A DNA stretch of 52,742 nt from a virus (taxonomy: Duplodnaviria; Caudoviricetes). The stretch is from the IMG/VR virus record IMGVR_UViG_3300025141_000137, positions 1 through 52,742 of that record; one strand, written 5' to 3'. Of this stretch, positions 11,901 through 52,742 are shown one piece after another. The notes under the pieces are model-generated. The model searched no databases and was not told the DNA's origin. It was given only the letters and a program-made list of their open reading frames with translations. Position 1 is the first letter of the stretch, and each line of letters begins with the position of its first letter. Position numbers and translations under genes: made by a program.

Positions 11901-12084
11901 GTGCTCTCATAATCGGCGGTTCATAGAGGGGCTCAGCAGGCTCTGGCCTCGCCTTTGGAGTCTTGTATACGCGGTTGGGATCAGGCTCCCAGTTGAGGAA
12001 CTCCTCTGGGGACATGGCATAGGGAGTCCGTGACTCCTTGCGCTCAGGGGTTCCCTCTTCAGGGGTATCGACAGGCTCTGCCAC
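5977..12084 (-). CDS. Very large internal virion (DNA ejection-like) protein, 2035 aa
   Basis: Size, helical/coiled-coil composition, third of three genes of rising size after the tail genes as in podoviruses. Confidence 0.65.
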   Translation of the reverse strand: MAEPVDTPEEGTPERKESRTPYAMSPEEFLNWEPDPNRVYKTPKARPEPAEPLYEPPIMRAQVSPHEPPMSAAQEASLALRQPSQRANIRAFYSAEFEMPSKERRQDLVRQGYLKPEEIDDEEAVRRVWESTYVRAASTPARHVLAAEGARKRGIWHQTYTHPVIKRVDTALPLVALAGGGTGIDYKGYKEKLFRETVQHLARVHSIEWRTASDVQKRWLEAEAESVSTAAFAQAVNRYRGVPWVDAYGTDVTAEIMELPAVIRPLAAVMRPVTWTEGGILTPGELKMEGALSQFGRLAPTTGLAAMIRTGESWGHERTIEEVRRGADIFQVLPQLGDLYLNYIYEDGKAPLWMRKSVGASIAIPLILIEPDPISLSLGVAGAGARIGKVYAETSRMGAKAAIGQEGLNAYEAGKASGREFMRTMRNSEAPEVRQAFEHAVAGEIEARSAEVMRKVEAANKELGALRLDRATREEAYIRKHAPEAKGGDPKGVDATTMDKFRRENDVAVAAKELEKAELTLLARKSEADEALEFLKEAEDLEEIGTSGQKAQRKVNAQLKRIKQEIIALEIKGQKAKLALDKARALHFEALEEIPEIAAMVQGGIKLSGEIPAVGGAPHIAAARVREDGDVIVRILTAEGETSNVLRQIGAPKAAPEGAVGLRLKALEESLEEAKKTESLWAARADEIEAPLTPAQGRGYEAEQKALRAEIRAEIKALKRDPAGFNPNIPGPRAAGWGEARLDRVNNIFKFGETGFAPHGPGFIGDAQRIVDKYLGPLPKWAEEAGLDPSRGSLRLQASLYARKEIAKAGTKVGKLEAEVAGVAGRVQTGAVRVSPELTTRITASHGSVKSAEHWFDLEVGKKIEELGLQRAMLETAKEDLKKGGLIRGFFVEARAAEKKARKARTAYNKAQRGLTKAERASSKSIADLQKSIKEVGRLGLKIKHAEELKPRAVAAMQAVIDSMLMHNKYIKKRYGGWRGATTSWDELNAIGAVYKKGAQIVAGKAIAASFKRVGRWGPGEEQLLTWDPQKAQSVLIKAYPKYAPAEVSGEVWGDLVRLGAQDLTKAQAAQIQDIISNTVMVIETKRATEATRVVGAMIWGSWQDLGVASRGDRLQKVGAYIKQLRRKTDYVEANVGAVGEGMADGLRLFENTLDLAQKEVFEVTSRAKNPLQVLRDYIDKPLTEISLKEGKSLLQVLLKGELVWDAGLRGIASASYRDPAEVADFLFRATTKREGALKQVQNAVAEEGLVDIASIEKLVGDLTDEGLVHALSGLGEVNLMIKTLGYAWVATGTKAAPRSEALLRSFAIDLIKKGEGTFDDFTMEMKKRTLAVFGDVASDEDGVRKSAMAVLAGVAHDRLGTHVKQMAGGLITMDEGRQLNRVLSGETTHLGSEGLEAAARASVKMGLPFTEDVHRIVQNGQKIQRKLVEIGENVIVPKALMDAVEESYRGYVKDLTALARLPTDQPVLGIDFTSELISAWKVSTITGVAVPNVRYWTNNIVGDFSQMWAEVGVARSGLLSFQNVLTNFGAPGRRFQEVLLNAAEGLDKAGRKAGLPSVTEVFFNPALGRFFRGEDGFFVSKGNRVTQFSEARKWLTDDGILDTFVHEEVLKYLTSSRLVNSPFMETFKKAKGWQRSLSEQASIVQQRQRSAFYLDLIQRGATRAEAKKRTLSALYDWKHGLARKEMDLWIVRMIPFYRFWRLAMKQATGAAIEPFTRPAGEYMARALTGRTRLARARQQVAITSGLPDLFFGGDPDEAIGHAEQMDELYKRMYPRWMDSRAILGAAGASTAKRQWLRDNLGKEATHTAYILPPFTMLDSFAMANAGLTLMTWAYEKAAPWRDPSERPDEMDAMAFEPLLGMTFPPLEMAFRWVGDRMGLALSYSNRSDYRTLTPAEERILGRFEKSRALMIPDEDTGKMKIPVWAHLMMRTVPVLGTQAPYLAGGVATNPYMESGGSLLNPLTYVPKNRAAWEYAFRYYTRFGAEYHYDAPKQAEYELKALAEKMSRSPHREELAPEHTRLPEERRYPLPPDVK

Positions 12085-22274: not shown

Positions 22275-23207
22275 CTACCTCCCACCTTTATGCACGCGAA
22301 GTGCACGTCGGGAGGCTAAAGCTCGCATTTCGTCCAGGCTTTTGGCGTCAGAAACTGTGGGAGAACGCACCTCTGGACGGGTATCCGTGGTGGCTCCATT
22401 GGTAAGTCGAGCAGCCGGCCGTGGCTGAGATGCGGCCTTCCTGGCGGTATCTGTGGCAGTCTTGACTTGTTCCTTCTCGTAGAGATCCCGGATCTTGTCG
22501 CGCTCATCCAGCTTTGACTGGAGATCCCGCTCTTTCGCGTCAGCCTGGGCAATGCGGAGCGCGTACTTATCGGACACGCCGTCTTTCTTGGCCGCAACTG
22601 CCAGCTTGAGCGTTTCTTCTGAGAGATCGAGTAGCTGGACTGCAACCTCTGCGTCCCAACTCCCCAGATCGCCTTCGGGGTCCAGGAGGTTCTTGAATCT
22701 CTCGCGCTTCTCGGGGTCTTCCTTGATGTCCCCGTGTCGGTCCCAGAAGTTGTCAGCGTACTCCCGGGCCATCAGTCCCTGGAAGTTGTTGTACTCCTCC
22801 TGCAAGGATTTCAGGTCCTCCCCAGCTTTTCCGTACTGAGCCTTGTACGCGTCGAACTCCCTGCGGAGCGTGTCCCGTTCACTGCTCAGGGAGCGGACCC
22901 GAGGATCCTCCTGCTCACGGATAATGGCGCTGTAGACATCCTGGAGATCCTTGAACTCCGCAGCCCGAGCCTCAAAGTCCTTGTTCAGGTGCGAGTGGAT
23001 CTTCCCACCGGATTCCTGGAGGTGGTCGGGGAGAGCGTCTACTTCGCCGCTCCAATCGTCCCAACCATCCCAAGAGGTGGAGGAGTCGGCAGCAGCTACA
23101 CCGGACGGGGATGCAGAGGCCGAAGCCTCGGGCACACCGCTGCTTTCTCCTCCAGAAACGGGGGCAGAGGCTTCTGCTGAGGGAGCTACAGGCGTTCCGT
23201 CATCCAC
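22275..23207 (-). CDS. Scaffolding protein
   Basis: Low-complexity acidic N-terminus, coiled coils, basic C-terminal helix, just upstream of MCP. Confidence 0.75.
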   Translation of the reverse strand: MDDGTPVAPSAEASAPVSGGESSGVPEASASASPSGVAAADSSTSWDGWDDWSGEVDALPDHLQESGGKIHSHLNKDFEARAAEFKDLQDVYSAIIREQEDPRVRSLSSERDTLRREFDAYKAQYGKAGEDLKSLQEEYNNFQGLMAREYADNFWDRHGDIKEDPEKRERFKNLLDPEGDLGSWDAEVAVQLLDLSEETLKLAVAAKKDGVSDKYALRIAQADAKERDLQSKLDERDKIRDLYEKEQVKTATDTARKAASQPRPAARLTNGATTDTRPEVRSPTVSDAKSLDEMRALASRRALRVHKGGR

Positions 23208-23638
23208 TATTTGCCCCCGTAGTGCTTGGAGAATGCCCGCTTTGCTGCGCTATTACGCATCGTGTGAGGGTCGAAACCGAATGCCTCGGCGCCACCCATG
23301 GGCTCTTCTTCCCCTTCTTCCTCAGGTGCCTCTTCTTCTGGGGCGCCCTCTGACTTGGTAAGCTCAAACCCGTATTCCTGGAGCCAGGAGACAAGCTGTC
23401 CTGCATCGCCAGGGCCGTGCTCCTTGATCGCTGCTTCCAGAGCAGCCTCCGGAGTGTCGTAGCTTTCCTTGGCAGGAGCCTCCTCTTCTGGGGCTTCCTC
23501 TTCTTCCTGCTCAGCCTCTTCCATGGGAGCCTCTTCTGCCATCTCGGGCATTTCGCCCTCGTGCATCTCTTCCATGGAATCCTTCTCCTTCTCAGACTTC
23601 TTGCCGCGCTTGGGCGCAGCGGAAGCAATGATCAACAT
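23207..23638 (-). CDS. Highly acidic small head-cluster protein
   Basis: E-rich; C-terminus resembles the scaffold C-terminus. Confidence 0.75.
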   Translation of the reverse strand: MLIIASAAPKRGKKSEKEKDSMEEMHEGEMPEMAEEAPMEEAEQEEEEAPEEEAPAKESYDTPEAALEAAIKEHGPGDAGQLVSWLQEYGFELTKSEGAPEEEAPEEEGEEEPMGGAEAFGFDPHTMRNSAAKRAFSKHYGGK

Positions 23639-23660
23639 GGGGGCTCCCTACAGAGAGTTT

Positions 23661-24089
23661 CTACCGGACCACCTTTGGGGTGTCAAGACCAGCTTTCAAT
23701 ACGTGCTCACGATTTTTCTCGCGCTTCCTCGCCTGTTGCTTGTGCCTCACATCACGGTAGCCCTCACTTCGAGCCGCCGCATCGCAGGAGTTTCGGACGT
23801 CGTCGTAATGGTCCGTCCATTCACGGTCGCTCTTGTCCACCACCTCGCGCCCCGGGTGCTTTGCAAAGTACCGGCGCATCTCTGAGTTGGACGTGAACTC
23901 CTTCCCAAGCTGGTTCATGGAGACGGGCCGGGTAGACGTGGCACCAACTGTCCTGATGGGGTGGAGGATCGTCCGAGCTCCTCCCCCACAGGTGGGACAA
24001 GTCAGCCCGTGGTTTTCGTACTCCCGGAGGCTCACGATGTCCTCGAATCGCCCGCAGTCCAACTCCACGCACTCGCCTTCATAGAGCAT
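23661..24089 (-). CDS. FmdB-like zinc-ribbon protein
   Basis: YEGECxxxxCG..FE...CPTCG. Confidence 0.7.
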   Translation of the reverse strand: MLYEGECVELDCGRFEDIVSLREYENHGLTCPTCGGGARTILHPIRTVGATSTRPVSMNQLGKEFTSNSEMRRYFAKHPGREVVDKSDREWTDHYDDVRNSCDAAARSEGYRDVRHKQQARKREKNREHVLKAGLDTPKVVR

Positions 24090-24245
24090 CTACTTCTTCC
24101 CCTTGGGCTTCTTGAGCTTCCAACCCCTGTTGTGCAGAGCCAGGACCTCAGCGAGGATCTCGTCCATGGTGAGGGGGCCGCTCTTCTTGGCCGGAGCCTT
24201 CTTTGCGGGGGCTTTCTTTGCTGTCGTCTTCTTCTCGGTAGCCAT
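24090..24245 (-). CDS. Small basic protein with KKAPAKK repeats
   Basis: AGGA RBS then MATEKK; start trimmed from ORF track. Confidence 0.65.
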   Translation of the reverse strand: MATEKKTTAKKAPAKKAPAKKSGPLTMDEILAEVLALHNRGWKLKKPKGKK

Positions 24246-25736
24246 GATCAGTCCTATAGTGGGCGGTGTCGAGGTTTGGCGAGGGCGCGGATTTGTTCCT
24301 TGGTCGGCCACTGTTCGGCAGCCTCGTAGGTTGCTTCTGCTTTCTGTCGAGCCGCCAGAGCACCTCGCTCAGTCATCAGAGCAGAGTGGAGAGGTTGGCT
24401 CAAGACGCCTTCCCGCAAGAGTTGGTTGGCCTGAGGGGGGTGTGCTCTCAGCCACTCAAGCCCATGCGGGGAGAGGTCCCCAGCCTCCAACGGGCGCGGC
24501 TTTTCAAGGCCATGGAGGGCGAAAAATCGAATCTGCTCGGTCGGGTCCGTGATCTTCGTGTAGTTGTAGGCTGCCAGCATGGGAATCGCCAGACCAGCCT
24601 CTATAGCCTCCGCCATCACCAACCAGGGCCCCACATAGGCCGTCTTCATGGCAACCTTGCCGATCTTCTTGAGTTGCGCCATCTTGGTATCAGCAGACTT
24701 GGCCATGTCATATCCATCAAAGGCAGCATCAAGCGCCTCATCCATGACCCCGACACCCTGAACGGCCGGGTCATTGCCAGTCGGATACCAACCCAGTGTC
24801 CGACTCTGATGCAGGTCCCCGTATAAGCCTTGTGCTGACACTTGTGAGGGGGCCCGAGCCTGATCATACGCATTCGCAGCCCGATCAAACTCATCAGTTG
24901 CCTTCTGGAGGTCCTCCATGATCGATGGCATGGCTCCCCACTGGGCGCTCAGACGCGCTGGTGCCGTGCGCTCCAGTGGACCCAGAGGTGGCCCAAACCT
25001 GCGGGCTGCTTGTCTATATCCGTGTTCGGCCCGCTGAAGCTTCTGTGCCGCTTCCCTCAGCTCAGCATCAGAAGCCAGCCGAGTGAGACCAGGATCTGGC
25101 CCGAACTGGTGAGCTTTCTTGCTGTGCCTCATCTCTTCGGGAAGCTTAGCGAGCGACTCCTCCCGGAGGAGAGCCGCATCTGCCATATAGTCCGTACCCC
25201 CCGGAATCTCTGAAATATCAGGGATGACATCCAGATCTGCCAGGGCATCGCGCATGACCCGCTCCCCAAACTCCCTCTCAATGTAAGCGTCTTGAGCCCC
25301 TTTCCAGGCTTGACCTCGTCGATGAGCCAAGTCGAGATCAGAGACCATCTTGGCCTCTCCCGCCATCCGAGCTTTCCTCGCTGATTGCTCCTTGGGGGCA
25401 CGGACCGCGGCCCCTAAAACCTCTGCGGGAGCGTCGATTCCAGCAATCTGCGCCATCCCGGCCGCCGCAGGAAGCCCCCATGACGCCGTGTACAGGCCCA
25501 GGGCTGCCTCACCTGACCCCTTTTCTGTGACTGGAATGGGAGCGACACCCCCGAGGGCTGTCTTGAAATGCTCCCAAGGACGAGCAGCCAAGGTAGCGGC
25601 AAGGCGCTCTTCCTGAGTTTGATTCCGCTGTTCCTGCTCCTTTGCGAGAGCCGTAGCGGCTGCTTCCTCCCGCATCTTCCGCATACTCTCCGAAGGATCT
25701 AAATCTACCCGTTCATCCCAAGCCATGATCAGTCCT
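24240..25736. repeat. Perfect 16-bp direct repeat AGCCATGATCAGTCCT
   Basis: Copies at 24240-24255 and 25721-25736. Confidence 0.85.
24254..25726 (-). CDS. Hypothetical 490-aa helical protein
   Basis: Long ORF with AAGGA RBS; flanked by 16-bp direct repeat. Confidence 0.8.
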   Translation of the reverse strand: MAWDERVDLDPSESMRKMREEAAATALAKEQEQRNQTQEERLAATLAARPWEHFKTALGGVAPIPVTEKGSGEAALGLYTASWGLPAAAGMAQIAGIDAPAEVLGAAVRAPKEQSARKARMAGEAKMVSDLDLAHRRGQAWKGAQDAYIEREFGERVMRDALADLDVIPDISEIPGGTDYMADAALLREESLAKLPEEMRHSKKAHQFGPDPGLTRLASDAELREAAQKLQRAEHGYRQAARRFGPPLGPLERTAPARLSAQWGAMPSIMEDLQKATDEFDRAANAYDQARAPSQVSAQGLYGDLHQSRTLGWYPTGNDPAVQGVGVMDEALDAAFDGYDMAKSADTKMAQLKKIGKVAMKTAYVGPWLVMAEAIEAGLAIPMLAAYNYTKITDPTEQIRFFALHGLEKPRPLEAGDLSPHGLEWLRAHPPQANQLLREGVLSQPLHSALMTERGALAARQKAEATYEAAEQWPTKEQIRALAKPRHRPL

Positions 25737-26032
25737 TACTTGTTGTACTTCTTGCGGTTCTTTGTGCGAGATGTGGCCCGGAGATTCCCGGTTGCATTCC
25801 CACCGCCCTTTGAGAGGGGCGTCTTGTGGTCAACTTCGTTCTCGTCCCCAGGCTTCAGGTCCAGCTTACGACGGGCCTTGTTCCGAGTGCTGCGATTCTT
25901 TCGCTGCTCGGGCTTGGCATGGTACTCGTCGTACTCCTTGCGGTAGTTGCGCTTGCCCTTTTTCTTGCCCGAGGATGCGAGCGCTGAGCGGGCCGCACCG
26001 TTCCGCATCTCCGCCATGGTCTTGTACGCCAT
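25736..26032 (-). CDS. Small HNH endonuclease
   Basis: VDHKTPLSKGG.N...NL.......NRKK; start trimmed to MAYKT. Confidence 0.8.
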   Translation of the reverse strand: MAYKTMAEMRNGAARSALASSGKKKGKRNYRKEYDEYHAKPEQRKNRSTRNKARRKLDLKPGDENEVDHKTPLSKGGGNATGNLRATSRTKNRKKYNK

Positions 26033-26034
26033 AG

Positions 26035-26217
26035 CTACTTCACGCTGTACTTGGGCTTCTGCTCTCGGCTCGCCTTCTCGGCTCGCTTCTTCTGCTCTCC
26101 CCACATCTCACTGAGCCTATCTTTGTGCCCCTGCTCAGAAGAAGCAGCGGGCTGCCCAAGGTCCTGCAGCAAGGTCTGCTTCTTTCGGTCGTCCATCGTT
26201 TGGAGGTCATTGGGCAT
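26035..26217 (-). CDS. Hypothetical protein
   Basis: GGAG RBS, fills gap. Confidence 0.6.
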   Translation of the reverse strand: MPNDLQTMDDRKKQTLLQDLGQPAASSEQGHKDRLSEMWGEQKKRAEKASREQKPKYSVK

Positions 26218-26219
26218 GA

Positions 26220-26516
26220 CTACTCCATCCAACCGACGTTGGGTTCGAGTTCGAGTTCCTCGGGGGGTGTGTGGGTGGGTGTCAGCGCTCTCTGAGCAGC
26301 ATTGTTCCGCATTTCTTCGAGAGACTGCGGGGCTTTGAAAGCTGGCGCTCGATCCTGAGCGGCCTGGGTCTCAAGCTCGTCCCCAGTGATGTGCTTCAGC
26401 GCAATGGCGCGGTCTGCCATGTTGGCAGCTTCAGCCCAGGCTTGGCTCGGGTCCATGCCATTCTGAATAGCGCGGGTTGCGTAGTCGTTGATGAACTGCT
26501 GACGGTCCTTGGCCAT
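26220..26516 (-). CDS. Hypothetical protein
   Basis: AAGGA RBS directly after portal. Confidence 0.7.
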   Translation of the reverse strand: MAKDRQQFINDYATRAIQNGMDPSQAWAEAANMADRAIALKHITGDELETQAAQDRAPAFKAPQSLEEMRNNAAQRALTPTHTPPEELELEPNVGWME

Positions 26517-26519
26517 GGA

Positions 26520-28400
26520 TCATCCTTCGGGCTTTACGCCTGGGGGAAGAGGGAAGGGTGCTCCGCCAAACCCAGGTAGGGGGGCTGGGTGGCCTGCACC
26601 ACCCATTTCTGAGGGGATCTCCTGAGACTGGTCTCCTGTGGGGAGGGCCCCAGCCGCCGTCGTGTCCTCTCCGGGAGGGGGCGGAGGCCCACCCGGACCA
26701 GGAGGAGCCTGAATCGGTGCGGCTCCCTGAGCCATCTGGGCCTGAAGTTGCTCGGGGGGAACCAGGAGGTTCTCCATCTGGAGCAGTTCAAGCAGCTTCT
26801 TCATCAGCTTGACCTTGTCAACTGACGGGCTCTGGATCAGGACAGGCAGGAAGTTGGAGAGGTTCCGGAGTTGCGTGAGCCGGTTGTTCTCAGCCGGGCT
26901 GTACGCGCTGACCTTGTAGTCAAACTGGAGGGGGTCCTCTCCCAACTCGTTGAGCAGATCCCGAGCCGCCATGGACGCCCGGGTGACCTCGACAACCTCT
27001 GGCGTGGCATCTGTCAGCCGGATGGGGAGCATTGCATCGTCTGGGAGGAACTCCTCGTAGAGCCCTACGATGCTCTGAGCCATCCACTTCACGAGGTCAT
27101 TCACAGCAGTCTGGCGACGACCGTTCCGCGTGCGGGTAGCGGTGTCCGCAAGAGCAACCTCGGTGGCAACGTCCGTGACGCCCACCACACCTCGACTGTA
27201 CTGTGGGATGCCCAGGACAAACTCGATGACTTGGTTGAGCTTATCTCTCTGCTGCGCGAACTCGGGAGTCAACGACGGGCTCTTCGTGTAGCCCACGATG
27301 TCGTTGATGCTCGCGTTTGCCTTGCCCTTGATGGAGACGACCGAGCCCGGAGCTCCTCCGTCTCGAATCTGAGCCTTTGCTGCAGCAGGGTTATCGCAGA
27401 GCCCCTCGTTGATCAGCATCATTGGAATGGACGTCTGGGCGTGCCAGAGCATCAGGGTGTCAAGCTCGTTCAGCCGGGACAGCGCATTCCAGATGAGCTT
27501 GACGTCTGAGACTCCTCCGATGTCGTTGAGGTTGTCGTTGAACGTCAGCAGGTAGAAGGGGTTGCGGACGAACCGGTAGGGGAGTTCCCCCTTGAACAAT
27601 GGCGCCTCAGCATCTTCCAGGAAGTGGTAATACTGCCCTTCTCCTGAGAAATCGTAGACCTCGTAGACAGTGACCCATTCGAGAATGTCCCGAGCGGTCT
27701 CATTCATCAGTGAGCGATCCCGAGTAGAATCCCGGAGCCACTGAGGGTACGAGGCAAACCGTGCTGACGAGGCAACCTTCTCGTCGTAGATCGCCTCCTC
27801 AGGGAGGTAGGGGTACGGGTCCGCGTCCTCTGGCTTGGCGGGCTTTTCAGTCGCCCCTTTTGCCCGGCGGTTGAACTCGTCCTTGGTCAGAACGGTCACC
27901 TCGATAAGGTACCGAAGGTCAGACCAACGGCCTGCGCTCTGGTCGAACCAGACATACCGAGGATCTCTCGTGATGAAATCTGGAGAGTTCCGTCGGAAGT
28001 TCCAGACCGCCTTTATGAAACACCGGGGGTAGACACAGCTAAGGGTGGCCGCCCGCCAGAGAATCGTGTGCGCCTTGATGCGGTCGAGAGTGTCGTTGAC
28101 CAGGGCCTCTCGATACCGAGCCGCGTTGGCCATCGCCGGACGACGAGCCAGGACATTGACCTCAGGATTGGTCGGGCAGATATTGGCGACCGCCGTGTCC
28201 GCGAAGGCATAGGCGAAGTTCGTCTCCATGGAGAGTTCTTCCCCGGCGCCCCCTCCTCCGCTGCCCTGGGGTTGATCACCCTCCGGGCCATAGAAGTCGC
28301 CCATGTACGCGCCACGGTACCGATCCCAGCGGGCGGTCTCCCCCTGGGACTTGTTCTTGTGCGCCCCGATGAGTTCTCGGATCTGGGTAGGCTTCAGCAT
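26520..28400 (-). CDS. Portal protein
   Basis: 626 aa downstream of terminase; ATEV clip-region motif, Pro/Gly/Gln-rich tail. Confidence 0.85.
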   Translation of the reverse strand: MLKPTQIRELIGAHKNKSQGETARWDRYRGAYMGDFYGPEGDQPQGSGGGGAGEELSMETNFAYAFADTAVANICPTNPEVNVLARRPAMANAARYREALVNDTLDRIKAHTILWRAATLSCVYPRCFIKAVWNFRRNSPDFITRDPRYVWFDQSAGRWSDLRYLIEVTVLTKDEFNRRAKGATEKPAKPEDADPYPYLPEEAIYDEKVASSARFASYPQWLRDSTRDRSLMNETARDILEWVTVYEVYDFSGEGQYYHFLEDAEAPLFKGELPYRFVRNPFYLLTFNDNLNDIGGVSDVKLIWNALSRLNELDTLMLWHAQTSIPMMLINEGLCDNPAAAKAQIRDGGAPGSVVSIKGKANASINDIVGYTKSPSLTPEFAQQRDKLNQVIEFVLGIPQYSRGVVGVTDVATEVALADTATRTRNGRRQTAVNDLVKWMAQSIVGLYEEFLPDDAMLPIRLTDATPEVVEVTRASMAARDLLNELGEDPLQFDYKVSAYSPAENNRLTQLRNLSNFLPVLIQSPSVDKVKLMKKLLELLQMENLLVPPEQLQAQMAQGAAPIQAPPGPGGPPPPPGEDTTAAGALPTGDQSQEIPSEMGGAGHPAPLPGFGGAPFPLPPGVKPEG

Positions 28401-29188
28401 CAGCGCCCGCGGCCCCCACCACCATGGAACAAGCGCTTCCTCTCAGCTTCGGCCTCTGGAGGAGCCTGTGCTCCTGTCCCCCCGGCAGCCGGAGGTGCAG
28501 CCGCAACAGCCGCAGCTTTCTCCTTCCCACCCTCACGGGCGGCCTTCCGACGCTTGGAGATCTCAGCCGTGAGCCTTCCGAGCATGTCTTCCATGTCTTC
28601 CAGACTCGGCGTGCTTCCAGCAGACTCGGGAGGCGCCATTTCCGGGGTCTCGGGTAATAGCTCGACTGGGGGGTCAGCGGGAGGCATTTCACTGCTAATC
28701 CCCAAAGGCTGGGCTTGGTGCCCTCTTGGCGGCCCACCTGCGAGAGCCGGCTCCTCGGGGGGCTCCAAGTCTGGAGAGTCGATCTTTGGCTCTGCCTTGC
28801 CCGCCTCCGCAAGCTCCTTTCGGATTGCGGTGTAGGGGACGCTATCCATCGGAACGACGTACCCAGCAGGAACCCTCCCCTTGGGATCCACGAGGATGCT
28901 GATCTCCTCTGAGATGGGATCGAAGGCATAGGTGTAGCCTCCAAAACCCTCGTGCCGAATCGAAGTGGGAGAAGCTGCTGGCGCACCAACTGCAGGAGCA
29001 GCGGCCAACTCTGGCTCCGGAAGCCCCATGTCTGGGGGAGGGCCGGGCGCAGCCTCGGGCAAAGCCGCATCCATGCCTTCGGCCGTGGGCAGACTTGTGG
29101 GGTCTTGGCTCCATGCTCCAGCCACGGCACGCCGAGCCGCGTCCTGTCGAGCCTGAGCTTGGGGATCAAGGTCGTAATACTGAGGCAT
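28400..29188 (-). CDS. Pro/Ala/Glu-rich protein with small folded core
   Basis: AGGAG RBS; TGATG coupling to portal. Confidence 0.7.
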   Translation of the reverse strand: MPQYYDLDPQAQARQDAARRAVAGAWSQDPTSLPTAEGMDAALPEAAPGPPPDMGLPEPELAAAPAVGAPAASPTSIRHEGFGGYTYAFDPISEEISILVDPKGRVPAGYVVPMDSVPYTAIRKELAEAGKAEPKIDSPDLEPPEEPALAGGPPRGHQAQPLGISSEMPPADPPVELLPETPEMAPPESAGSTPSLEDMEDMLGRLTAEISKRRKAAREGGKEKAAAVAAAPPAAGGTGAQAPPEAEAERKRLFHGGGGRGR

Positions 29189-29211
29189 CGCTCACTCTCC
29201 TATCCAACAGT

Positions 29212-30132
29212 TTATCCTTGTGGAAACCAACCCTTCAGGGTGTCCATAAGAGACTTCTCGGGCGGGGGCGCTTCCACGTCTGTCGGCCAGGGGACGATCT
29301 CTGGTGGGGGGCCCACTCCAATAGACATCCAAGCATAGTGATCGAGCCAGCCGTTTCTCCAAGCCATCTCTCGATATTCTTTGTTGTGCTTGAGGATAGT
29401 AAGCCGGGCCTCGCCTCCGACGTCGGGCTCCTTGAGCTCCCACGCCTGAAGGGGCCTACCCTTTTCAGCCGCCTGCTCGTACAGGGGATCGCCCAAGCCT
29501 CCAACGATGGCGGGCCCCACACGTATGCCGTAGTCGAGCTTTGCCTTTTGCTTGTCGTCTAGAGCAGCAATCCGCGCAGAGAAGATCCCCTCCTCCTCTC
29601 TCTCTCCTCTCCACCGCGTTTTTTCCTCTTCTGGGCTAGGGCCTGCTTCTGTGGGGCGTAGAGGCTCGTAGCCCGCTATTTCAGCCTCTGCCTGCTGTGC
29701 GGCTCGATGGCCTTTCTTGGCCATTGCGATATCCTCGGGAATCTCAGGCCCGTACCACAGTTCTGGAGAGGCCGGGGGAAGCCCAGGGCCAATGGGTCCG
29801 GACCAATCCGGGCCGGGTTGCCCTTCCTTTCGGATCCACTCTCGCGGATAGAGTAGCTCATCAATAGCCGAGGAGGCGCCGGAAGTGGCCGGGGCGGCAG
29901 CCCGAGCAGACTCGGACGGGGAGCGCGTCTTCTTGGAAGCACCCTTCTTGGGAGCGGCCTTTCTCGTAGGCGCTGGGGCGGGAGCGGCTTCTGGGACGGC
30001 TGCTGGTTCCTCTGAGGCGAGGGCCTTCTTCGCAGCTTCCGCCCGATGCTCATGCCACGCCTTCCGGGCATCCTCACGCTCCGCCTGCTCTTCTTCTGGG
30101 GAGATGAATACCTCCCTTCTCCTGCGTCCCAT
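29212..30132 (-). CDS. Pro/Ala-rich hypothetical protein
   Basis: AAGGAGG RBS. Confidence 0.75.
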   Translation of the reverse strand: MGRRRREVFISPEEEQAEREDARKAWHEHRAEAAKKALASEEPAAVPEAAPAPAPTRKAAPKKGASKKTRSPSESARAAAPATSGASSAIDELLYPREWIRKEGQPGPDWSGPIGPGLPPASPELWYGPEIPEDIAMAKKGHRAAQQAEAEIAGYEPLRPTEAGPSPEEEKTRWRGEREEEGIFSARIAALDDKQKAKLDYGIRVGPAIVGGLGDPLYEQAAEKGRPLQAWELKEPDVGGEARLTILKHNKEYREMAWRNGWLDHYAWMSIGVGPPPEIVPWPTDVEAPPPEKSLMDTLKGWFPQG

Positions 30133-30152: not shown

Positions 30153-30407
30153 CTATCGTGAAGCGGGCGGAGTGGGCGAGGGGAAGTCTTGCGACTTCTG
30201 CATATCGTGAAGATCCGCCAGAGAAGGCCCCTCCCGAAAGACAATGGCCTTCTTGGGGTCGGCGTGGAATCGCTTCCAGTCTACTGTGAAGGGCCCGTAC
30301 TGAGCAGTCCAGAGGTTCGGGACCACGGCTGTCATCCCTTTATACGCGAGATGGTGGGCGTCCCTTTCTGGGAGGTAGACGATTTCAGCGTCTGCAGGTT
30401 GCTTCAT
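30153..30407 (-). CDS. Hypothetical protein
   Basis: ATGA overlap with terminase stop. Confidence 0.65.
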   Translation of the reverse strand: MKQPADAEIVYLPERDAHHLAYKGMTAVVPNLWTAQYGPFTVDWKRFHADPKKAIVFREGPSLADLHDMQKSQDFPSPTPPASR

Positions 30408-32110
30408 TTCCGCCTCGTGGGGAGTCGATAGGTCAGCCGGGGAGCAGGCTTCTTGTCCCCCGCTATAGTAGCTCGATACTTCTGCTGCCGGTCATAGGGC
30501 ATTTCAGAAAAGAGCGCAGTCGAGTCAATAGGCGTGTGGGGAAAGGGGCGTTGGGGCAGCGCACGGGCTGCCTGGATTGCCATGAGGAGGGCCGAGACCT
30601 TGTCCCAGTGGTGCCGATCTCGACGGCGAGGGGATGGCCCTCCACGAACAAGCTCCAGACCAGCGCCCTCCTCGATCCGCTTGTCATTCTTGTAGGTCTG
30701 GAGTTGCTCCACCGTGTTCTTGTCATGGAGGATGAGATCGTCCAAGAGGGAGTCGATGAGGTGCCCGGTCATGCGATCCAGGCTCTTGGAGGTCGTGGTC
30801 AGCCCGGGTGTGAACTTCCTCTCGTAGAAGAGGTTGCCGTACTCAGCCTGATCGAGGAGAGACAGCACCGCCTGTCCAACACCATTGGACTCTACGGTGA
30901 CCAGTGCGCCGTTGTACCGCTCGGCTGCTCGTAGGATGTGCCGGTGGAAGGTCAACGGATCGACGTGGTCAGCAAAGCACGCCACCTGTTCCCAGTGCCT
31001 GTCGTAGACCTTGAGGACCTGGAACGAGGCGTGATCTCGTGCGGCATAGCCGGAGGGGTCAACACCAATCGCGTAGATAGCGTCCGACTTGGGAGCCTCG
31101 TACTCCATGTACGGCGCCTCCCAGGACACGAGCGGAGCGTCGATGTGCTTCTGGAGAGCCCGGGTTGGGATCGCAGCGTTGGTCGAGGAGATCCAACAAC
31201 CCACGTCATCAAAGGGGTACATGACGACAAAGCGCTCGGGATGCCTCCTGAGCTCAGCATCTTCCTGGAGAGCCAATCGTCGGAAGAAGAGATTGTCCCA
31301 GGTCAGCCCGTCCTTGTGGTACCGCTCGTACAGCCGGATCTCTTCCAGGTCCCAGACCGTGTCAGACGGGGGGACACGGGCATTCAGGAGCCCGTCCCAA
31401 AAAGGATAGAACCGAGCGAAGTGCCTCGCGTGGGGCTGAGACGTGGCCTCCTTCGCCATCAGGTAGTGCTCGTGCCAGGAACTGCCCCGCTCCCAGGGCG
31501 TTGCCTCAAACAGCACGAGCGCATTCTGCCGGTTTCGAAGGGATGGTGTAATGAGGAACATGGACCCTTCAAAGTCCGACCAGAGATGGCATTCCGAAGC
31601 GTGGAAGCTGTCCGGGCTCTGCCCAACACCCACAGCCCCAGACTCCGCAGAGAGCACGCGCATACGCCCACCGTGGAGAGGATCGAAGGACAACTGGCGG
31701 CTCTCTCGCTGAGAGACCGTGGGCGTGCGTAGCTGCTCAGGCCAGCGCAGATGCAAGTGGTGGATCCGCTTGTGCAGGTAGTCTGCCCGGTCCCGGGTAT
31801 CTGCGATGGTGACGTGGTCCCAGCCCGGGGTGTAGGCAGCCAACGGGTACGCTGCCATGTCAGCCGAAGTGGACTTGCCGACCTGACGAGATGCCAGGAT
31901 TGTGATCCACCGGGTATGCCCAGAGGGCGTCCGAGGGGGATTCGAGTAGTAGGCCAGGATGTCCTGCTGGAGCGTCCTGGTCAGATCCCCAGGGTTGTAC
32001 TTCTTGAAGCGTCCCGTGGCGAGATCGTGGACTTGCCCGTATGCCGGGAGAGAAGTGCTGGGTGTCTGGAGCGCCTTGAGAAGCCGCTGGGCCTGGAGAG
32101 GAGTCGTCAT
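30404..32110 (-). CDS. terL: Terminase large subunit
   Basis: ASRQVGKST Walker A, FHASE Walker B variant, IGVDPS RNase H-like nuclease motif, VESNGVG, HWDKVSA. Confidence 0.93.
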   Translation of the reverse strand: MTTPLQAQRLLKALQTPSTSLPAYGQVHDLATGRFKKYNPGDLTRTLQQDILAYYSNPPRTPSGHTRWITILASRQVGKSTSADMAAYPLAAYTPGWDHVTIADTRDRADYLHKRIHHLHLRWPEQLRTPTVSQRESRQLSFDPLHGGRMRVLSAESGAVGVGQSPDSFHASECHLWSDFEGSMFLITPSLRNRQNALVLFEATPWERGSSWHEHYLMAKEATSQPHARHFARFYPFWDGLLNARVPPSDTVWDLEEIRLYERYHKDGLTWDNLFFRRLALQEDAELRRHPERFVVMYPFDDVGCWISSTNAAIPTRALQKHIDAPLVSWEAPYMEYEAPKSDAIYAIGVDPSGYAARDHASFQVLKVYDRHWEQVACFADHVDPLTFHRHILRAAERYNGALVTVESNGVGQAVLSLLDQAEYGNLFYERKFTPGLTTTSKSLDRMTGHLIDSLLDDLILHDKNTVEQLQTYKNDKRIEEGAGLELVRGGPSPRRRDRHHWDKVSALLMAIQAARALPQRPFPHTPIDSTALFSEMPYDRQQKYRATIAGDKKPAPRLTYRLPTRRK

Positions 32111-36592: not shown

Positions 36593-36913
36593 ATGACACT
36601 TGGACACCTTGCGCCTCTTAGGCGTGACACCGCTGAGACAGCCGCTGAGGATCTGACGATCCGAGGCCCACAACCTTGCAGGCTTCAGCCCCAACAGACG
36701 ACCCTACGCCAGTCTCAACTGGAGTCTATTGAGAAGGTCGAGGAGATCCTGTGGGCTATTTTCCACTACGACCGTAGCCCGTCAGAACACGTCCTTACAG
36801 CGTGGCGTGCCGTCAATGCGGCCCGTGTCCAGGACATGGCTGAGATGATCGACGGTGCTGAGCGTCGTCCTGAGACGGTTTGCAATAGGCAGGACTGTCG
36901 ATGCCAGACCTGA
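36593..36913 (+). CDS. Hypothetical early protein
   Basis: CAGGAGACTACCGATG start. Confidence 0.6.
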   Translation: MTLGHLAPLRRDTAETAAEDLTIRGPQPCRLQPQQTTLRQSQLESIEKVEEILWAIFHYDRSPSEHVLTAWRAVNAARVQDMAEMIDGAERRPETVCNRQDCRCQT

Positions 36914-38804: not shown

Positions 38805-38893
38805 CACCGAGACTTCAGCCCCTCGCCCCTGTGGCTTGGGGTTGTGGCCTCAGTGCTGTTCCAGTCCTGAGGATTCCCCAACGGAGACAACCA

Positions 38894-40168
38894 ATGACTA
38901 CGTCCACCCTTCCTATGGCTACTCTCTCTGAGAGTGGTCCCATTGAGAGTAATCTCACCGCTCAAGAGCTTGCCGTAGCCACTGCGCTAATGGCAAACCT
39001 CCCTCCCCTGCTTGTGGGGCGTCCTGGTACCGGGAAGTCTACCTTTATGGCGGCCCTTGTCCAGGCTCTCCAGTACAGGGGACACACCTGGATTCTGACG
39101 CAGATGGACCCCACTGTAATCGGTGGGCTCCCCTACAAGACGACTGTGGAGATGTTCGGGCAGATGCGAGAGGTCGTCAAGCGAGCGCCCCATATCTCCT
39201 TTGTGGCGACGGCCCTGGACACGGAGAATACCTACGTCCATGGCTTTGATGAGTTCAGCAACGCTACCCCTGCTCAGCGGTCAGCATTCCTGGACCTCGT
39301 GACTCGGCGCTACGCTGGGGACTTGCCCCTGCCTGAGAGCACACGATTCTGGGCAGGGATGAACCCTGCTAACTGCGCTGTTGTGTACCATCCTCTCCAG
39401 TGTCCTACCGCTACACGGTGGGTCTGGATTGACTGGGAGCCTGCCTACAATCGGGAAAGCTGGCGGCGTGGAATGCTGGAGGGCTGGCCTGAGCCCAAGG
39501 TGCCGCGTCTCTCTGAGAACTGGCAGGATCTCATTCCCATGTCACGCGCTATGCTCGTGGGCTTTGAGAAGCGAGACCCTACCGTGTTCCACGAGGGGTT
39601 TGTGCTGACAGAGGACGGACTCCACTGCCCTGAGCCTGCAAAGCTGGTGGACTGTCCTACCAGCAACGGGCGTACCCTGGAGATGGCGGCTGTGGCATAT
39701 GCTGCAACGCTGGGGCTGGCAGGGAGTGGCCTGGCCGAGGCTGACATTGAGGCTGTCCGGTCCCTGCTAATCAAGGGCATTCTGGGAGAGGCGACAGGCC
39801 GTGCGCTCGTGGAATACTTTGATGTGGCGAATGAGATCCCCTCTCCTGAGGAGATTCTCGCTGACCCCACTGGCTACGATGTCCAGGGCCTCCGTCCTGA
39901 CCTCCAGTTCTTGATGATCTCCTCCGTCGGTGCCTATGTCCGTGGTCTCGTGGTCAACAAGCGAGACTCCAGCGCTGACGCCTGGGCACGGGCTCTCCGG
40001 TTCGTGCAGCACGTTGATTCTCAGGGTGCTGGGGATCTCGCTATGGTGTGTGCCAGCCTGTTCATAGCTAAAGCGGTCGGTATTCCGACAGGAGCTAAGG
40101 CTCCCAAGGGTACGCTGGCTGTACTGCTGCCCGTCTTGAATGAACTAAAGAGTATCGCTGCTAAGTAG
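38894..40168 (+). CDS. MoxR-like AAA+ ATPase
   Basis: GRPGTGKS Walker A, FDEFS Walker B, DPTVIGGLP, AGMNP sensor; GGAG RBS. Confidence 0.9.
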   Translation: MTTSTLPMATLSESGPIESNLTAQELAVATALMANLPPLLVGRPGTGKSTFMAALVQALQYRGHTWILTQMDPTVIGGLPYKTTVEMFGQMREVVKRAPHISFVATALDTENTYVHGFDEFSNATPAQRSAFLDLVTRRYAGDLPLPESTRFWAGMNPANCAVVYHPLQCPTATRWVWIDWEPAYNRESWRRGMLEGWPEPKVPRLSENWQDLIPMSRAMLVGFEKRDPTVFHEGFVLTEDGLHCPEPAKLVDCPTSNGRTLEMAAVAYAATLGLAGSGLAEADIEAVRSLLIKGILGEATGRALVEYFDVANEIPSPEEILADPTGYDVQGLRPDLQFLMISSVGAYVRGLVVNKRDSSADAWARALRFVQHVDSQGAGDLAMVCASLFIAKAVGIPTGAKAPKGTLAVLLPVLNELKSIAAK

Positions 40169-40249
40169 GAGTCCGGTCAGACACTGAGACGTCTCACCCA
40201 GGTGTGGGACGTCTCCGTGTCCGATTCCGGGCATTTCAAGGAGACTGAC

Positions 40250-41032
40250 ATGGGACAGAAGGAGACTGCTGCGTTCTTCCTCTCTGTGAGGGTGCAATGC
40301 GGTGGAGCACTACACAAAATAGGAATCACAACCAAGGGACATTTCGTCATGTGTGAGCATGACATGGAGGAGTTCAAGGTCATGGCGGAGTTCCTCGGAG
40401 ACGGGGACCGCCAGTACAAGGGCGGTAAGAAGGGCGGTGTCCGAGACATCCGTTGCTTCTACGTCCTGGCCCAGTGGAGAGAGTTCTTCAACAGGCGCCA
40501 TGCCTACGAAAAGACTCATTTCCACCAGACCCCGGCTGATCTGCGACCTTTTATGAAGATCGCTGTGGATATCGGCAGTAGGCGTAGGAGGGCTAACAAC
40601 GCCCGCTACGGGGAGGGCCCACAGTGGAAACAGGCCATTACGAGCACGCACATCAAGGCGCATGATCGCCTCACGGATATCCGAAAGCGCAGCCCTATCG
40701 TCAATGAGAGCGGCTACGTTCTCTCCAGCAGGATGACATCGTGCGAGCACCTCCATGGTACGTGGATACGTGCCTCCTTCCGTAGACGGAAGGGTGTGGG
40801 GTACCTCACATACGACCCTGACTTTACCCCCCACGAGGGTCTCCTCACCGGGTACAGGGTCTCCGTCACTGACACCTCCCCCATTGGACGTATCTGTACC
40901 AAGGAAGGGAGGCTGGCTCACCCAGGATTTTCCTGGGATCCGCCCCCTGCGCTGGGCTTTCGCAACGTGTCGGCTATGCGGCACAACTCACCCTGGGCTC
41001 TCGCTGAGAGACCCCTCACCCCTGGAGAATAG
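40250..41032 (+). CDS. Hypothetical basic protein between AAA+ and vWA genes
   Basis: CAAGGAGACTGACATG start; Cys/His-containing N-terminus. Confidence 0.7.
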   Translation: MGQKETAAFFLSVRVQCGGALHKIGITTKGHFVMCEHDMEEFKVMAEFLGDGDRQYKGGKKGGVRDIRCFYVLAQWREFFNRRHAYEKTHFHQTPADLRPFMKIAVDIGSRRRRANNARYGEGPQWKQAITSTHIKAHDRLTDIRKRSPIVNESGYVLSSRMTSCEHLHGTWIRASFRRRKGVGYLTYDPDFTPHEGLLTGYRVSVTDTSPIGRICTKEGRLAHPGFSWDPPPALGFRNVSAMRHNSPWALAERPLTPGE

Positions 41033-41034
41033 CC

Positions 41035-51554: not shown

Positions 51555-52742
51555 GTGCCCTCTTTTTGCCCGGATTGCCCGCTAATCAAGCTGGGCATCA
51601 CAGATAAGACTGCTTGTGGCCCCGAGACCGGGCCCAAGTCTGAGTATCTCCTCGTTGGGGAGGCCCCTGGCGTCAGTGAGACGCGGGAAGGCCGCCCCTT
51701 TGTCGGCCCGAGTGGCCAGCTACTCCAGAAAGCACTCGACTCCGTCGGAATACGTCGGGATACGTGCCACATCACCAATGTCATCCAGTGTCGCCCGCCT
51801 CAGAACAACATGGAGGCCGCGAACATCGCAGTTCGGCGTCACAACCGCAAGATTGACAAGGACAAGGCCCCTCTTGAGGTCCCAAAGGCAGCATGTCGTG
51901 GACGTTTCTACTCTGAGTGTGCCCACGCTGGGCTCACCAAGGTAATCTGCCTGGGGAAGGAGGCTGCCCAGGGCATTCGAGGCGGCACGTTCTCTATTCT
52001 GGGTATGCGAGGCGCCTGTGAGGAAATACCTGCTCCCTGGGATCCCACACAGACGCTCAAGGTCGCCTACCTCCTGCACCCGGCCTTTGTCCTGAGGGCT
52101 CCTCAATGGGAGGAGGTCTTTCTCAGAGACATGGACCGAGCCTTCCGTTTCTTTGAGGACAAGCTGACCTGGGAGGAGCCTGAGATCATTATCTCAAACG
52201 ACTACAAGGTCCAGGTTGCGACCCTGACACGTATCGCCAAGGCAGAGAAGCCCGCAGCATACGATGTCGAGACTGAGTTGAAAGGTCCCATCGACTCTCG
52301 CACTCGCTGCATTGCCGTCGCAAACGATGAGCTCGCACTCGTTGTCCCTACGAGGTCTGTGACGGGAGCGCCTCTCGCTGGGAGTCTCGCCCAACTACAG
52401 CCCGTGCTGGACTTCCTCCGGACCCCTCCAGTTCCGCTGGTCGGGCACAATGCCGGTCAGTTTGACCGGACCCACATGCTCGCAGCCTGGGGGGTAGACG
52501 CCAAGGTTTCAGCAGACACGATGGTCCTCCACCTACTGACAAACAACGAGCTACCCCACAACCTGGGCTTTGTGGGCTCACACCACACCGACTTCACAGA
52601 GGCGTGGAAGGCAGACCACACAGCGACCGAGGCTCAGGATGACCTGGAGTTGCACACCTACTGTGCCAAGGACTCGGTTGTCACTGCCAGAGTCGTCGGC
52701 CCGCTCGTCAAGTGTGTGCGAGAACGGGAGCAACTGCACCTC
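51555..52742 (+). CDS. DNA polymerase N-terminus: family-4 UDG + 3'-5' exonuclease (3' truncated; absent from ORF track)
   Basis: Manual translation: CPDCPL, LVGEAPG, GRPFVGPSG, TNVIQCRPP, LHPAFVLR, then YDVET, GHNAGQFD, YCAKD; open to window end. Confidence 0.9.
   Translation, partial: MPSFCPDCPLIKLGITDKTACGPETGPKSEYLLVGEAPGVSETREGRPFVGPSGQLLQKALDSVGIRRDTCHITNVIQCRPPQNNMEAANIAVRRHNRKIDKDKAPLEVPKAACRGRFYSECAHAGLTKVICLGKEAAQGIRGGTFSILGMRGACEEIPAPWDPTQTLKVAYLLHPAFVLRAPQWEEVFLRDMDRAFRFFEDKLTWEEPEIIISNDYKVQVATLTRIAKAEKPAAYDVETELKGPIDSRTRCIAVANDELALVVPTRSVTGAPLAGSLAQLQPVLDFLRTPPVPLVGHNAGQFDRTHMLAAWGVDAKVSADTMVLHLLTNNELPHNLGFVGSHHTDFTEAWKADHTATEAQDDLELHTYCAKDSVVTARVVGPLVKCVREREQLHL

Follow-up and report, generated by a model that had tools for sequence, protein, structure and literature searches.

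The head module of the window

The stretch of DNA analysed here, called the window throughout, is a complete virus record of 52,742 bp from the Caudoviricetes (IMG/VR record IMGVR_UViG_3300025141_000137), with a G+C content of about 60%. Its head module lies on the minus strand and comprises, in this order, the genes for the large terminase (terL), an 84-aa open reading frame (ORF), a 306-aa protein, a 262-aa protein, the portal, a 98-aa protein, an HNH-like protein of 122 aa, a 490-aa protein, a basic ORF of 73 aa, a Zn-ribbon protein of 142 aa, an acidic protein of 143 aa, a scaffold-like protein of 310 aa and the major capsid protein (MCP) (Table 1). A short peptide recurs near a terminus of seven of these proteins, and in the candidate scaffold, the protein encoded directly upstream of MCP, it forms the conserved C-terminal tail. 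This peptide is the subject of the present work. It is a real motif, conserved in related phages and selected at the level of the peptide, and it is terminal, portable from one protein to another and confined to the head module. As will be argued, it can be read as a tag that docks accessory proteins in the procapsid.

A recurrent terminal peptide

A six-frame scan of the window with the pattern R..A[AS]..A[LFV] gives 10 matches. Seven of them are the sites that had been listed in a preliminary description of this DNA, each at the position given there and each in the minus-strand coding frame of a different head-module protein. The residues SLDE, SLEE or TMAE before three of the sites, the DP dipeptides upstream of three and the differing codons are likewise as had been described. 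The conserved Arg is found at residue 14, 19, 30 or 34 from the N-terminus or at 15, 15 or 28 residues from the C-terminus, in keeping with the claim that the peptide lies near a terminus in all seven. The carriers had also been called otherwise unrelated; pairwise BLAST between them returns tag-length or low-complexity matches only, the best (E 8e-4 over 67 aa) being that between the 262-aa and the 306-aa proteins.

The three further matches lie elsewhere. One (9205-9231) is internal to a 2035-aa protein and receives no support from the motif models described below, and another (36628-36654) falls outside the called genes. The third (51969-51995) belongs to a 128-aa ORF, in which the Arg is residue 38.

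The number of matches in the head module is far above that expected from composition. In its 10 proteins (2,572 aa), 7 matches in 7 proteins are observed against 0.09 expected, and none of 1000 within-protein shuffles produced more than 2. For all 61 proteins of the window, the same kind of shuffling gives 0.43 expected against 9 observed. With a stricter pattern, requiring Met or Leu before the Arg, 5 matches are observed against 0.02 expected. These counts argue against chance or composition as the origin of the peptide, that is, against its being a trivial product of the Ala/Arg-rich helices of GC-rich phage proteins.

The individual sites were scored in a non-circular way, with an iterated model built from relatives only; its seeds were the scaffold tails of the relatives, and no window sequence was included. 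In 300 shuffled proteomes, the best score with this model has a mean of 2.2 bits, a 95th percentile of 5.6 and a maximum of 9.0. The sites in the window score 20.1 bits (98-aa protein), 18.8 (scaffold), 17.7 (acidic protein), 15.4 (HNH-like protein), 9.6 (490-aa protein), 5.1 (306-aa protein) and 1.3 (262-aa protein). The first five are individually solid, since their scores exceed those of all 300 shuffles. Of the set of seven that had been put forward at the outset, five sites are thus upheld one by one, and the 306-aa site is borderline and the 262-aa site weak. The site in the 128-aa ORF reaches 5.6 bits, which equals the 95th percentile of the shuffle maxima; a value of 10.4 bits in another model is inflated because the site was among the seeds of that model. 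It is uncertain whether this site is due to chance or marks an eighth carrier.

Conservation and restriction in related phages

Relatives were collected from IMG/VR in two steps. An MCP search gave 34 loci at 69-84% identity (the first set), and an MCP profile search gave 162 matching stretches; 80 of these 162 were kept, of which 53, at 61-71% identity, were new (the independent set). Two more loci came from metagenome-assembled genomes (MAGs). The relatives have a conserved backbone, made up of terL, portal, Zn-ribbon protein, small acidic protein, scaffold, MCP and four downstream genes, and the genes around terL and portal vary between them.

With a motif model from the first set and a threshold of at least 8 bits, 81 matches are found among 2,189 coding-strand ORFs, against none in 2,952 opposite-strand ORFs, none in shuffled and 1 in reversed sequences. 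All 81 lie upstream of the MCP gene, where 236 kb were searched, and the 190 kb downstream of it contain none. When reduced to 57 unique sites, 39 are within 30 residues of the C-terminus and 16 within 60 residues of the N-terminus; the remaining 2 are internal or at a cut end. The 53 independent loci, which were not used in model building, behave in the same way: there are 36 matches, every one upstream of MCP (357 kb, against 311 kb downstream), with 1 on the opposite strand and none in shuffled sequences, and the unique sites are all terminal (31/31). Both expectations raised by the preliminary description, namely conservation in related phages and restriction to the region between terL and MCP, are therefore borne out in the two sets of loci. 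The iterated consensus, [SDT][LIM]x[DE][ML]RxxA[AS][KR][RKN]A[LFM], has 165 coding-strand matches of at least 8 bits, against none on the opposite strand and none in shuffled sequences.

At the invariant positions, the six Arg codons and the four Ala codons are all used about evenly, as judged from 125 unique DNA instances. Since the synonymous codons are fully spread, it is the peptide that is conserved and not a DNA element, as had been surmised from the differing codons in the window. A degenerate DNA pattern for EMRxxAAxRAL matches 43 stretches in the whole of IMG/VR, 29 of them in this clade and 14 as isolated singletons without a homologous head gene.

One of the relatives, L036 (CP070713, 1918089-1939174; flanks L091-L093), has 75% MCP identity and lies inside a 3.5-Mb MAG chromosome named ‘Myxococcales bacterium’. 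Along 81 kb, with 1500 bases masked, what it has in common with the window is limited to the head genes and the two genes that follow, and neither a tRNA nor a clear border of a prophage was seen over this length. It is possible that L036 is a prophage and gives a hint of the host.

The tails of the scaffold-like and acidic proteins

The scaffold-like gene directly precedes the MCP gene in 33 of the 34 loci of the first set. In an alignment of the scaffolds (A3), the tail SLDEMRxLAARRALxVHxGGR is the best conserved stretch. The peptide stands at the extreme C-terminus of the scaffold in all genomes, and in many it is followed by a short hook, VH-x-GG-[RK], which in the window reads RVHKGGR. 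A hook of the form H-x-GG-[RK] also ends the acidic protein (SKHYGGK, 23207-23230) and the 262-aa protein (RLFHGGGGRGR, 28400-28432) of the window. Elsewhere among all loci, the scaffold-type hook is seen in scaffolds only (39).

The positional orthologues of the acidic protein (116-152 aa) carry a C-terminal variant of the peptide in every aligned relative. When a hidden Markov model (HMM) is made solely from scaffold tails of relatives (16 unique ones), it detects the 98-aa protein at 18.0 bits and the acidic protein at 10.8, both above the best of 200 shuffles (9.2). The earlier equation of the recurrent peptide with the C-terminal peptide of the scaffold is in agreement with this result.

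A second stretch of the scaffold is also worth recording. About 35 residues before the peptide there is an invariant block, PRPAA[KR]ITNGAT (22380-22420 on the minus strand, residues ~262-273). The pattern PR..A..T.GA occurs in 78 scaffold ORFs and in only 1 other ORF across all loci. This block may be a second functional site.

Carriers and portability

Apart from the scaffold and the acidic protein, the peptide is carried by variable ORFans that range from 75 to 1131 aa and are encoded on both sides of terL and portal. As a rule, it is either C-terminal or N-terminal with the Arg at residue 8-14, behind a MAD-like start. None of 19 tagged proteins of relatives that were scanned has a Pfam family. 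Among 33 genomes that are not identical and extend at least 8 kb upstream of MCP, 28 have tagged non-scaffold proteins. Their number per genome is between 0 and 7 (median 2), which places the window at the high end. Closer relatives contain a family of 15 large proteins adjoining terL, with the peptide at one or both ends; this family is absent from the window.

Homologues of the HNH-like protein in relatives are untagged in 5 of 5 cases: four start straight at the conserved core and one has a different N-terminus. The window copy is thus the sole tagged one of six, and its tag is on an N-terminal extension, in which the Arg is residue 34 or 10, depending on which start codon is used. L036 encodes an orthologue of the 98-aa protein (63% identity) at a different place, upstream of terL, and this orthologue has kept the tag as SMEDMRMDAARKAL. 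Furthermore, parts resembling the 262-aa and the 490-aa proteins are fused in a single protein of L036, with an internal tag at the junction. Taken together, the untagged HNH homologues, the retained tag of the 98-aa protein and the fusion junction show that the tag is a module. The portability that had been proposed is hereby substantiated, for non-homologous carriers and for either terminus.

Some details of the individual carriers can be added. The C-terminal part of the 490-aa protein (Arg at residue 19) has homologues in L001, L036 and L038/39; the ESM Atlas gave no usable lead for this protein (best score 0.81, own model with a predicted local distance difference test score, pLDDT, of 0.40). 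The starts of the 262-aa protein and of the 306-aa protein (Arg at residue 30) are preceded by the Shine-Dalgarno sequences AGGAG and AGGAGG, respectively.

In distant relatives (L074, 1-6574; L043, 5596-8203; L049, 5903-8259), two to five neighbouring genes have near-identical tagged N-termini (MADLLKDKRMEI..., MADAKTIREEAA...) and different bodies. This suggests tandem duplication, or an exchange of bodies behind a fixed tag.

Such tandem paralogues are what would be expected if the recurrence of the peptide went back to remnants of duplicated genes, and the two window sites that are not significant alone could be accommodated by chance. These explanations do not agree with the whole of the observations. 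The peptide is present on both termini of non-homologous proteins, it is kept with a full synonymous codon spread, and neither the shuffled sequences nor the opposite strand reproduce its frequency. An origin in chance, composition or simple paralogy is contradicted by these data and is very improbable.

The 25 residues flanking the tags differ somewhat in composition from the rest of the proteins, with a P+G+S+T fraction of 0.33 against 0.25 and a hydrophobic fraction of 0.20 against 0.24. The effect is modest; such flanks would fit a tether. Together with the terminal place, somewhat flexible flanks would also suit a degron or a processing signal, and it could be imagined that the peptide has no role in assembly at all but is recognized by a protease, a chaperone or a degradation system, or is a regulatory element that times the levels of head proteins. 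A Pfam scan of 40 window proteins detected no protease family, prohead proteases included, although a very divergent protease would escape such a scan; a putative metallopeptidase with a DUF2201 domain is encoded in the non-structural arm (41035-42471). Moreover, the limitation of the motif to the head module and its occurrence in the scaffold tail would be left without a reason. A role outside assembly therefore appears quite improbable. Likewise, a removal of the tag as in phage T4 is not indicated, because of the lack of a protease family among the 40 scanned proteins.

A proposed role in procapsid docking

In known scaffolding proteins, the coat-binding regions are C-terminal (PMC12005531). 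In P22, a basic helix-turn-helix at the scaffold C-terminus contacts acidic residues in the coat N-arm (PMC9965877). The scaffold of 80alpha has a C-terminal 11-residue helix and a 5-residue hook, which lie along the N-arm helix of the capsid protein, and the copy in SaPI1 CpmB binds likewise (PMC5644958). The herpesvirus protease gains entry to the procapsid via the MCP-binding C-terminus of the scaffold (PMC12474303).

By analogy with the scaffold C-termini of P22, 80alpha and herpesviruses, docking on MCP is the most economical reading of the peptide. We propose that it is a portable procapsid-docking tag, in which the capsid-binding tail of the scaffold has been copied onto accessory proteins encoded between terL and MCP, and we assign a probability of about 0.5 to this proposal. 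The 14-residue consensus would represent the capsid-binding tail, reused as a portable module that is attached, N- or C-terminally, to accessory proteins whose set changes. During assembly of the procapsid, the tag would dock its carriers on the scaffold's site on MCP at the inner surface, and the docked carriers would be enclosed when the shell closes. Small carriers, for example the acidic protein, may serve as co-scaffolds and then exit. Large carriers, which reach 1131 aa in relatives, would remain in the shell and pass with the DNA into the next host. The binding to MCP, the encapsidation and the later fate of the tagged proteins are inferred.

The interaction was modelled by folding MCP with residues 100-143 of the acidic protein, each with a 19-row alignment, in three runs and with 3 controls. 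The interface score (ipSAE) is 0.55, 0.51 and 0.42 (median 0.51), against 0.00 for the best control; the pLDDT of the partner is at least 56, and the runs agree in at least 84% of contacts. In calibration, 58 of 80 solved complexes attained the mark, as did 2 of 110 mismatched pairs. The model weakly supports binding of the tag to MCP. The preliminary description had suggested such a fold for every peptide; for the acidic tail, the one that was folded, the outcome is a weak pass. Residues 1-20 of MCP have a conservation of 0.88 against a mean of 0.78, and they are not the most conserved stretch of MCP.

Several points weigh against the docking proposal. First, scores of 0.60 or less are shared by only 7 of the 80 solved complexes and by both passing mismatches, and a pass of this kind is wrong in the majority of cases when the guess had not been a likely one to begin with. 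Second, the tags do not co-vary with the scaffold tail of their own genome: the mean percentile is 0.49-0.53 for 84-532 terminal segments, in a pool of 660 segments and 55 unique tails. Third, the Eisenberg hydrophobic moment of the seven tags lies between the 19th and the 67th percentile of window 14-mers and is thus not raised, so that a classical amphipathic helix is unsupported. Fourth, the borderline 306-aa site and the 262-aa site, which is not significant alone, both lack the Met and the acidic cap. Fifth, the label of the scaffold is based on its synteny (directly before the MCP gene), size and composition, with no support from families or source names: it has no Pfam or PHROG family, its last 40 residues have no sequence match in the PDB, and 19 homologues in a set of 5.8 billion proteins have no informative names. 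Finally, small HNH proteins beside portal and terminase genes are packaging cofactors, as reported by Kala et al. in 2014. On this ground, the HNH-like protein may not be cargo, and it could be a terminase cofactor that is merely tethered to the assembling head.

The position of the tagged genes leaves room for another receptor. Both in the window and in relatives they flank the terL and portal genes, and in L066 the untagged HNH homologue is encoded immediately after the portal gene. It could therefore be imagined that the portal, or a nucleation complex of portal and scaffold, is where the tagged proteins dock, and that a few copies at the portal vertex act as accessories of ejection or packaging, the HNH-like protein included. 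The scaffold of P22 touches the portal too (PMC12005531). However, the motif forms the very C-terminal end of the scaffold, and in the systems studied this end is the part that binds the coat (PMC12005531, PMC5644958, PMC9965877). The fold with MCP, 0.51 against 0.00 for controls, is weak evidence in the same direction. Docking on the portal is regarded as unlikely.

The tag might also bind the scaffold core, by helix-helix contacts with the body of the scaffold or with other tags, the carriers being co-assembled with the scaffold. The T4 proteins with a capsid-targeting sequence are encapsidated ‘into the precursor scaffolding core’ (PMC3012670), and in P22 the bundle of scaffold helices seems to offer a docking place for the ejection proteins at its inner end (PMC12005531). 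Helices could pack closely at the invariant Ala positions. Binding to the core does not explain, however, why the motif is on the scaffold's own coat-binding end, and it is likewise regarded as unlikely. Docking on MCP thus remains the preferred reading.

Annotation and neighbouring genes

The features of the head module and the additional tag-like site are collected in Table 1. Searches of Pfam and PHROGs yielded nothing for the 306-, 262-, 98-, 490- and 143-aa proteins of the window. The identity of MCP to that of relatives is 61-84%. The MCP profile has no sequence match in the PDB; the family SU10_MCP is named in 11% of one neighbouring ESM Atlas cluster, and a Pfam scan of 19 members gave no confirmation. 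With tblastn, neither MCP nor portal is matched in 50,697 GenBank phage records, so that no cultured relative was found there and this marine phage is a member of an uncultured group.

Table 1. Head-module genes and tag-like sites of the window
Feature	Position	Strand	Support	Remark
Large terminase (terL)	30404..32110	-	phrog_2 E 6e-12; Pfam Terminase_6C E 3e-4	upstream border of the region of tagged genes
306-aa ORFan	29212..30132	-	regex match	borderline N-terminal tag, 30019-30048
262-aa Pro/Ala-rich protein	28400..29188	-	regex match	weak N-terminal tag, 29123-29152
Portal, 626 aa	26520..28400	-	phrog_156 ‘portal’ E 9e-11	55-58% identity in relatives
98-aa protein	26220..26516	-		tag 26283-26312, 28 residues from the C-terminus
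HNH-like protein, 122 aa	25736..26104	-	phrog_4590 E 5e-15; Pfam HNH E 5.9e-4, under the curated cut-off	N-terminal tag, 25979-26008
490-aa ORFan	24254..25726	-		N-terminal tag, 25646-25675
73-aa basic ORF	24090..24311	-		overlaps the end of the 490-aa gene; untagged
Zn-ribbon protein, 142 aa	23661..24089	-	CxxC...CxxC	untagged
Acidic protein, 143 aa	23207..23638	-		C-terminal tag, 23231-23260
Scaffold-like protein, 310 aa	22275..23207	-		C-terminal tag, 22299-22328
MCP, 359 aa	21127..22206	-	phrog_9953 ‘major head protein’ E 2.8e-6, full length	proposed tag receptor
128-aa ORF	51720..52106	-		tag-like NRERAASNAL; outside the head module

Some other genes deserve mention. The Zn-ribbon protein is kept between portal and acidic protein in 32 of the 34 loci of the first set. 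The 73-aa ORF is very basic, with AKKAPAKKAPAKK repeats that recall histone H1-like DNA binders. In the non-structural arm (38831-42471, plus strand), the gene for an AAA-type ATPase (445 aa, weak Pfam matches) is followed by a 276-aa ORF and by the gene for a protein of 478 aa that combines a DUF2201_N putative metallopeptidase domain with a VWA-like part. The pair of AAA-type ATPase and DUF2201_N protein is uncommon for such an arm of a phage. In the tail region, the 2035-aa protein (5977-12084, minus strand) is matched by neither Pfam nor PHROGs; it may be a fibre, or else an internal or ejection protein.

Significance

The choice of proteins for carriage in the capsid is known in few model systems (T4, P1 and P22), and it is often with the carried proteins that host defences are first countered. 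Here, a signature in the sequence alone marks variable candidate passengers in more than 80 uncultured genomes. It ties them to the predicted capsid-binding tail of the scaffold and provides a concrete loading mechanism that is open to experiment. In the most far-reaching version of the proposal, which we consider conceivable but somewhat doubtful, a terminus-independent loading tag of 14 residues, identical to the coat-binding tail of the scaffold, would define a hypervariable set of virion-packaged and host-injected proteins (nucleases and ORFans of up to 1131 aa) in a widespread clade of uncultured marine phages. If this were true, a search for the tag would allow repertoires of injected effectors to be read from metagenomes. 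Foreign proteins could then also be brought into HK97-fold shells by means of this natural handle, attached at either end. It would be a natural counterpart of the engineered scaffold-fusion loading of P22, in the form of a short tag that apparently works at either terminus. As no cultured relative was found among the GenBank phage records, a study of the window phage needs heterologous assembly.

Comparison with known systems

Several systems are known in which a short terminal sequence directs proteins into a shell, or in which the end of a scaffold is shared. The capsid-targeting sequence (CTS) of T4 is cut off by the prohead protease. It is a short conserved terminal peptide and the only common feature of the diverse and fast-changing proteins that are loaded into the prohead (PMC3012670). 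In this respect the window clade is alike, having a short terminal peptide on otherwise unrelated and variable proteins of the head region, known here from the genes. The CTS is N-terminal and directs its carriers into the scaffolding core, whereas the tag of the window is found at either terminus, equals the C-terminal tail of the scaffold and is accompanied by no recognisable protease. An exclusively N-terminal placement as in T4 is not seen, the 57 unique sites of the first set being divided into 39 C-terminal and 16 N-terminal ones besides the 2 others.

In phage P1, about 30 N-terminal residues of DarB, which is a large anti-restriction protein, suffice to bring both DarB and a reporter into the capsid (PMC9024508). 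The signal resembles the tag of the window in being an N-terminal capsid-targeting stretch. Unlike the tag, the signal has been described in a single protein. A separate scaffold is said to be lacking in P1, and the passages concerned report no link between the signal and a scaffold tail (PMC9024508).

Another likeness is offered by the pair of 80alpha and SaPI1. The unrelated protein CpmB copies the C-terminal 16-21 residues of the scaffold and binds the capsid N-arm in the same way (PMC5644958). In the window, the scaffold, acidic and 262-aa proteins similarly end in the basic hook H-x-GG-[RK]. As for mimicry of a scaffold tail by another protein, the 98-aa and acidic proteins score above all shuffles with the scaffold-tail HMM, and the hook is present on the acidic and 262-aa proteins. 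CpmB is borne by a satellite and redirects capsid size, whereas the copies in the window belong to the phage's own genome, extend over up to seven proteins and include N-termini without a hook.

The sharing of a scaffold C-terminus is also known from C and Nu3 of phage lambda. In herpes simplex virus (HSV), a function other than scaffolding, that of the UL26 protease, enters the procapsid via the C-terminus that it has in common with the scaffold UL26.5 (PMC12474303). UL26 and UL26.5 are nested in-frame genes with identical sequence, in contrast to the separate genes of the window, which have about 14 residues in common and differing codons. A nested in-frame origin of the tail is not observed here, the seven ORFs being separate, at separate coordinates and with different codons.

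The scaffold of P22 shares with that of the window a basic C-terminal element, which in P22 is placed on the coat N-arm (PMC9965877), and fusion of cargo to the P22 scaffold fills the particles (PMC9962691). The natural ejection proteins of P22 seem to dock on the scaffold and not on the coat (PMC12005531). Loading by fusion in P22 is man-made; the tag of the window is proposed as its natural equivalent.

Encapsulins use short terminal cargo peptides on flexible linkers, which dock varied cargo inside an HK97-fold shell. Their consensus is different, the peptide stands at the C-terminus of an enzyme, and there is usually one enzyme type per shell. They have no portal, terminase or DNA, whereas the window has genes for terminase and portal and tags at both termini, so that the arrangement is not one of cargo loading of the encapsulin type.

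A search of the full-text literature, from which most subscription journals are left out, found no description of a multi-protein set of tags derived from a scaffold tail. The observation of the tags is solid, and the docking mechanism is plausible, if unproven. The system differs from those of T4 and P1 in that the tag is the scaffold's own tail, is placed at either terminus and has no recognisable protease beside it. From CpmB and UL26/UL26.5, which also reuse a scaffold tail, it differs in the number of copies, since the phage itself has the tail in as many as seven separate genes.

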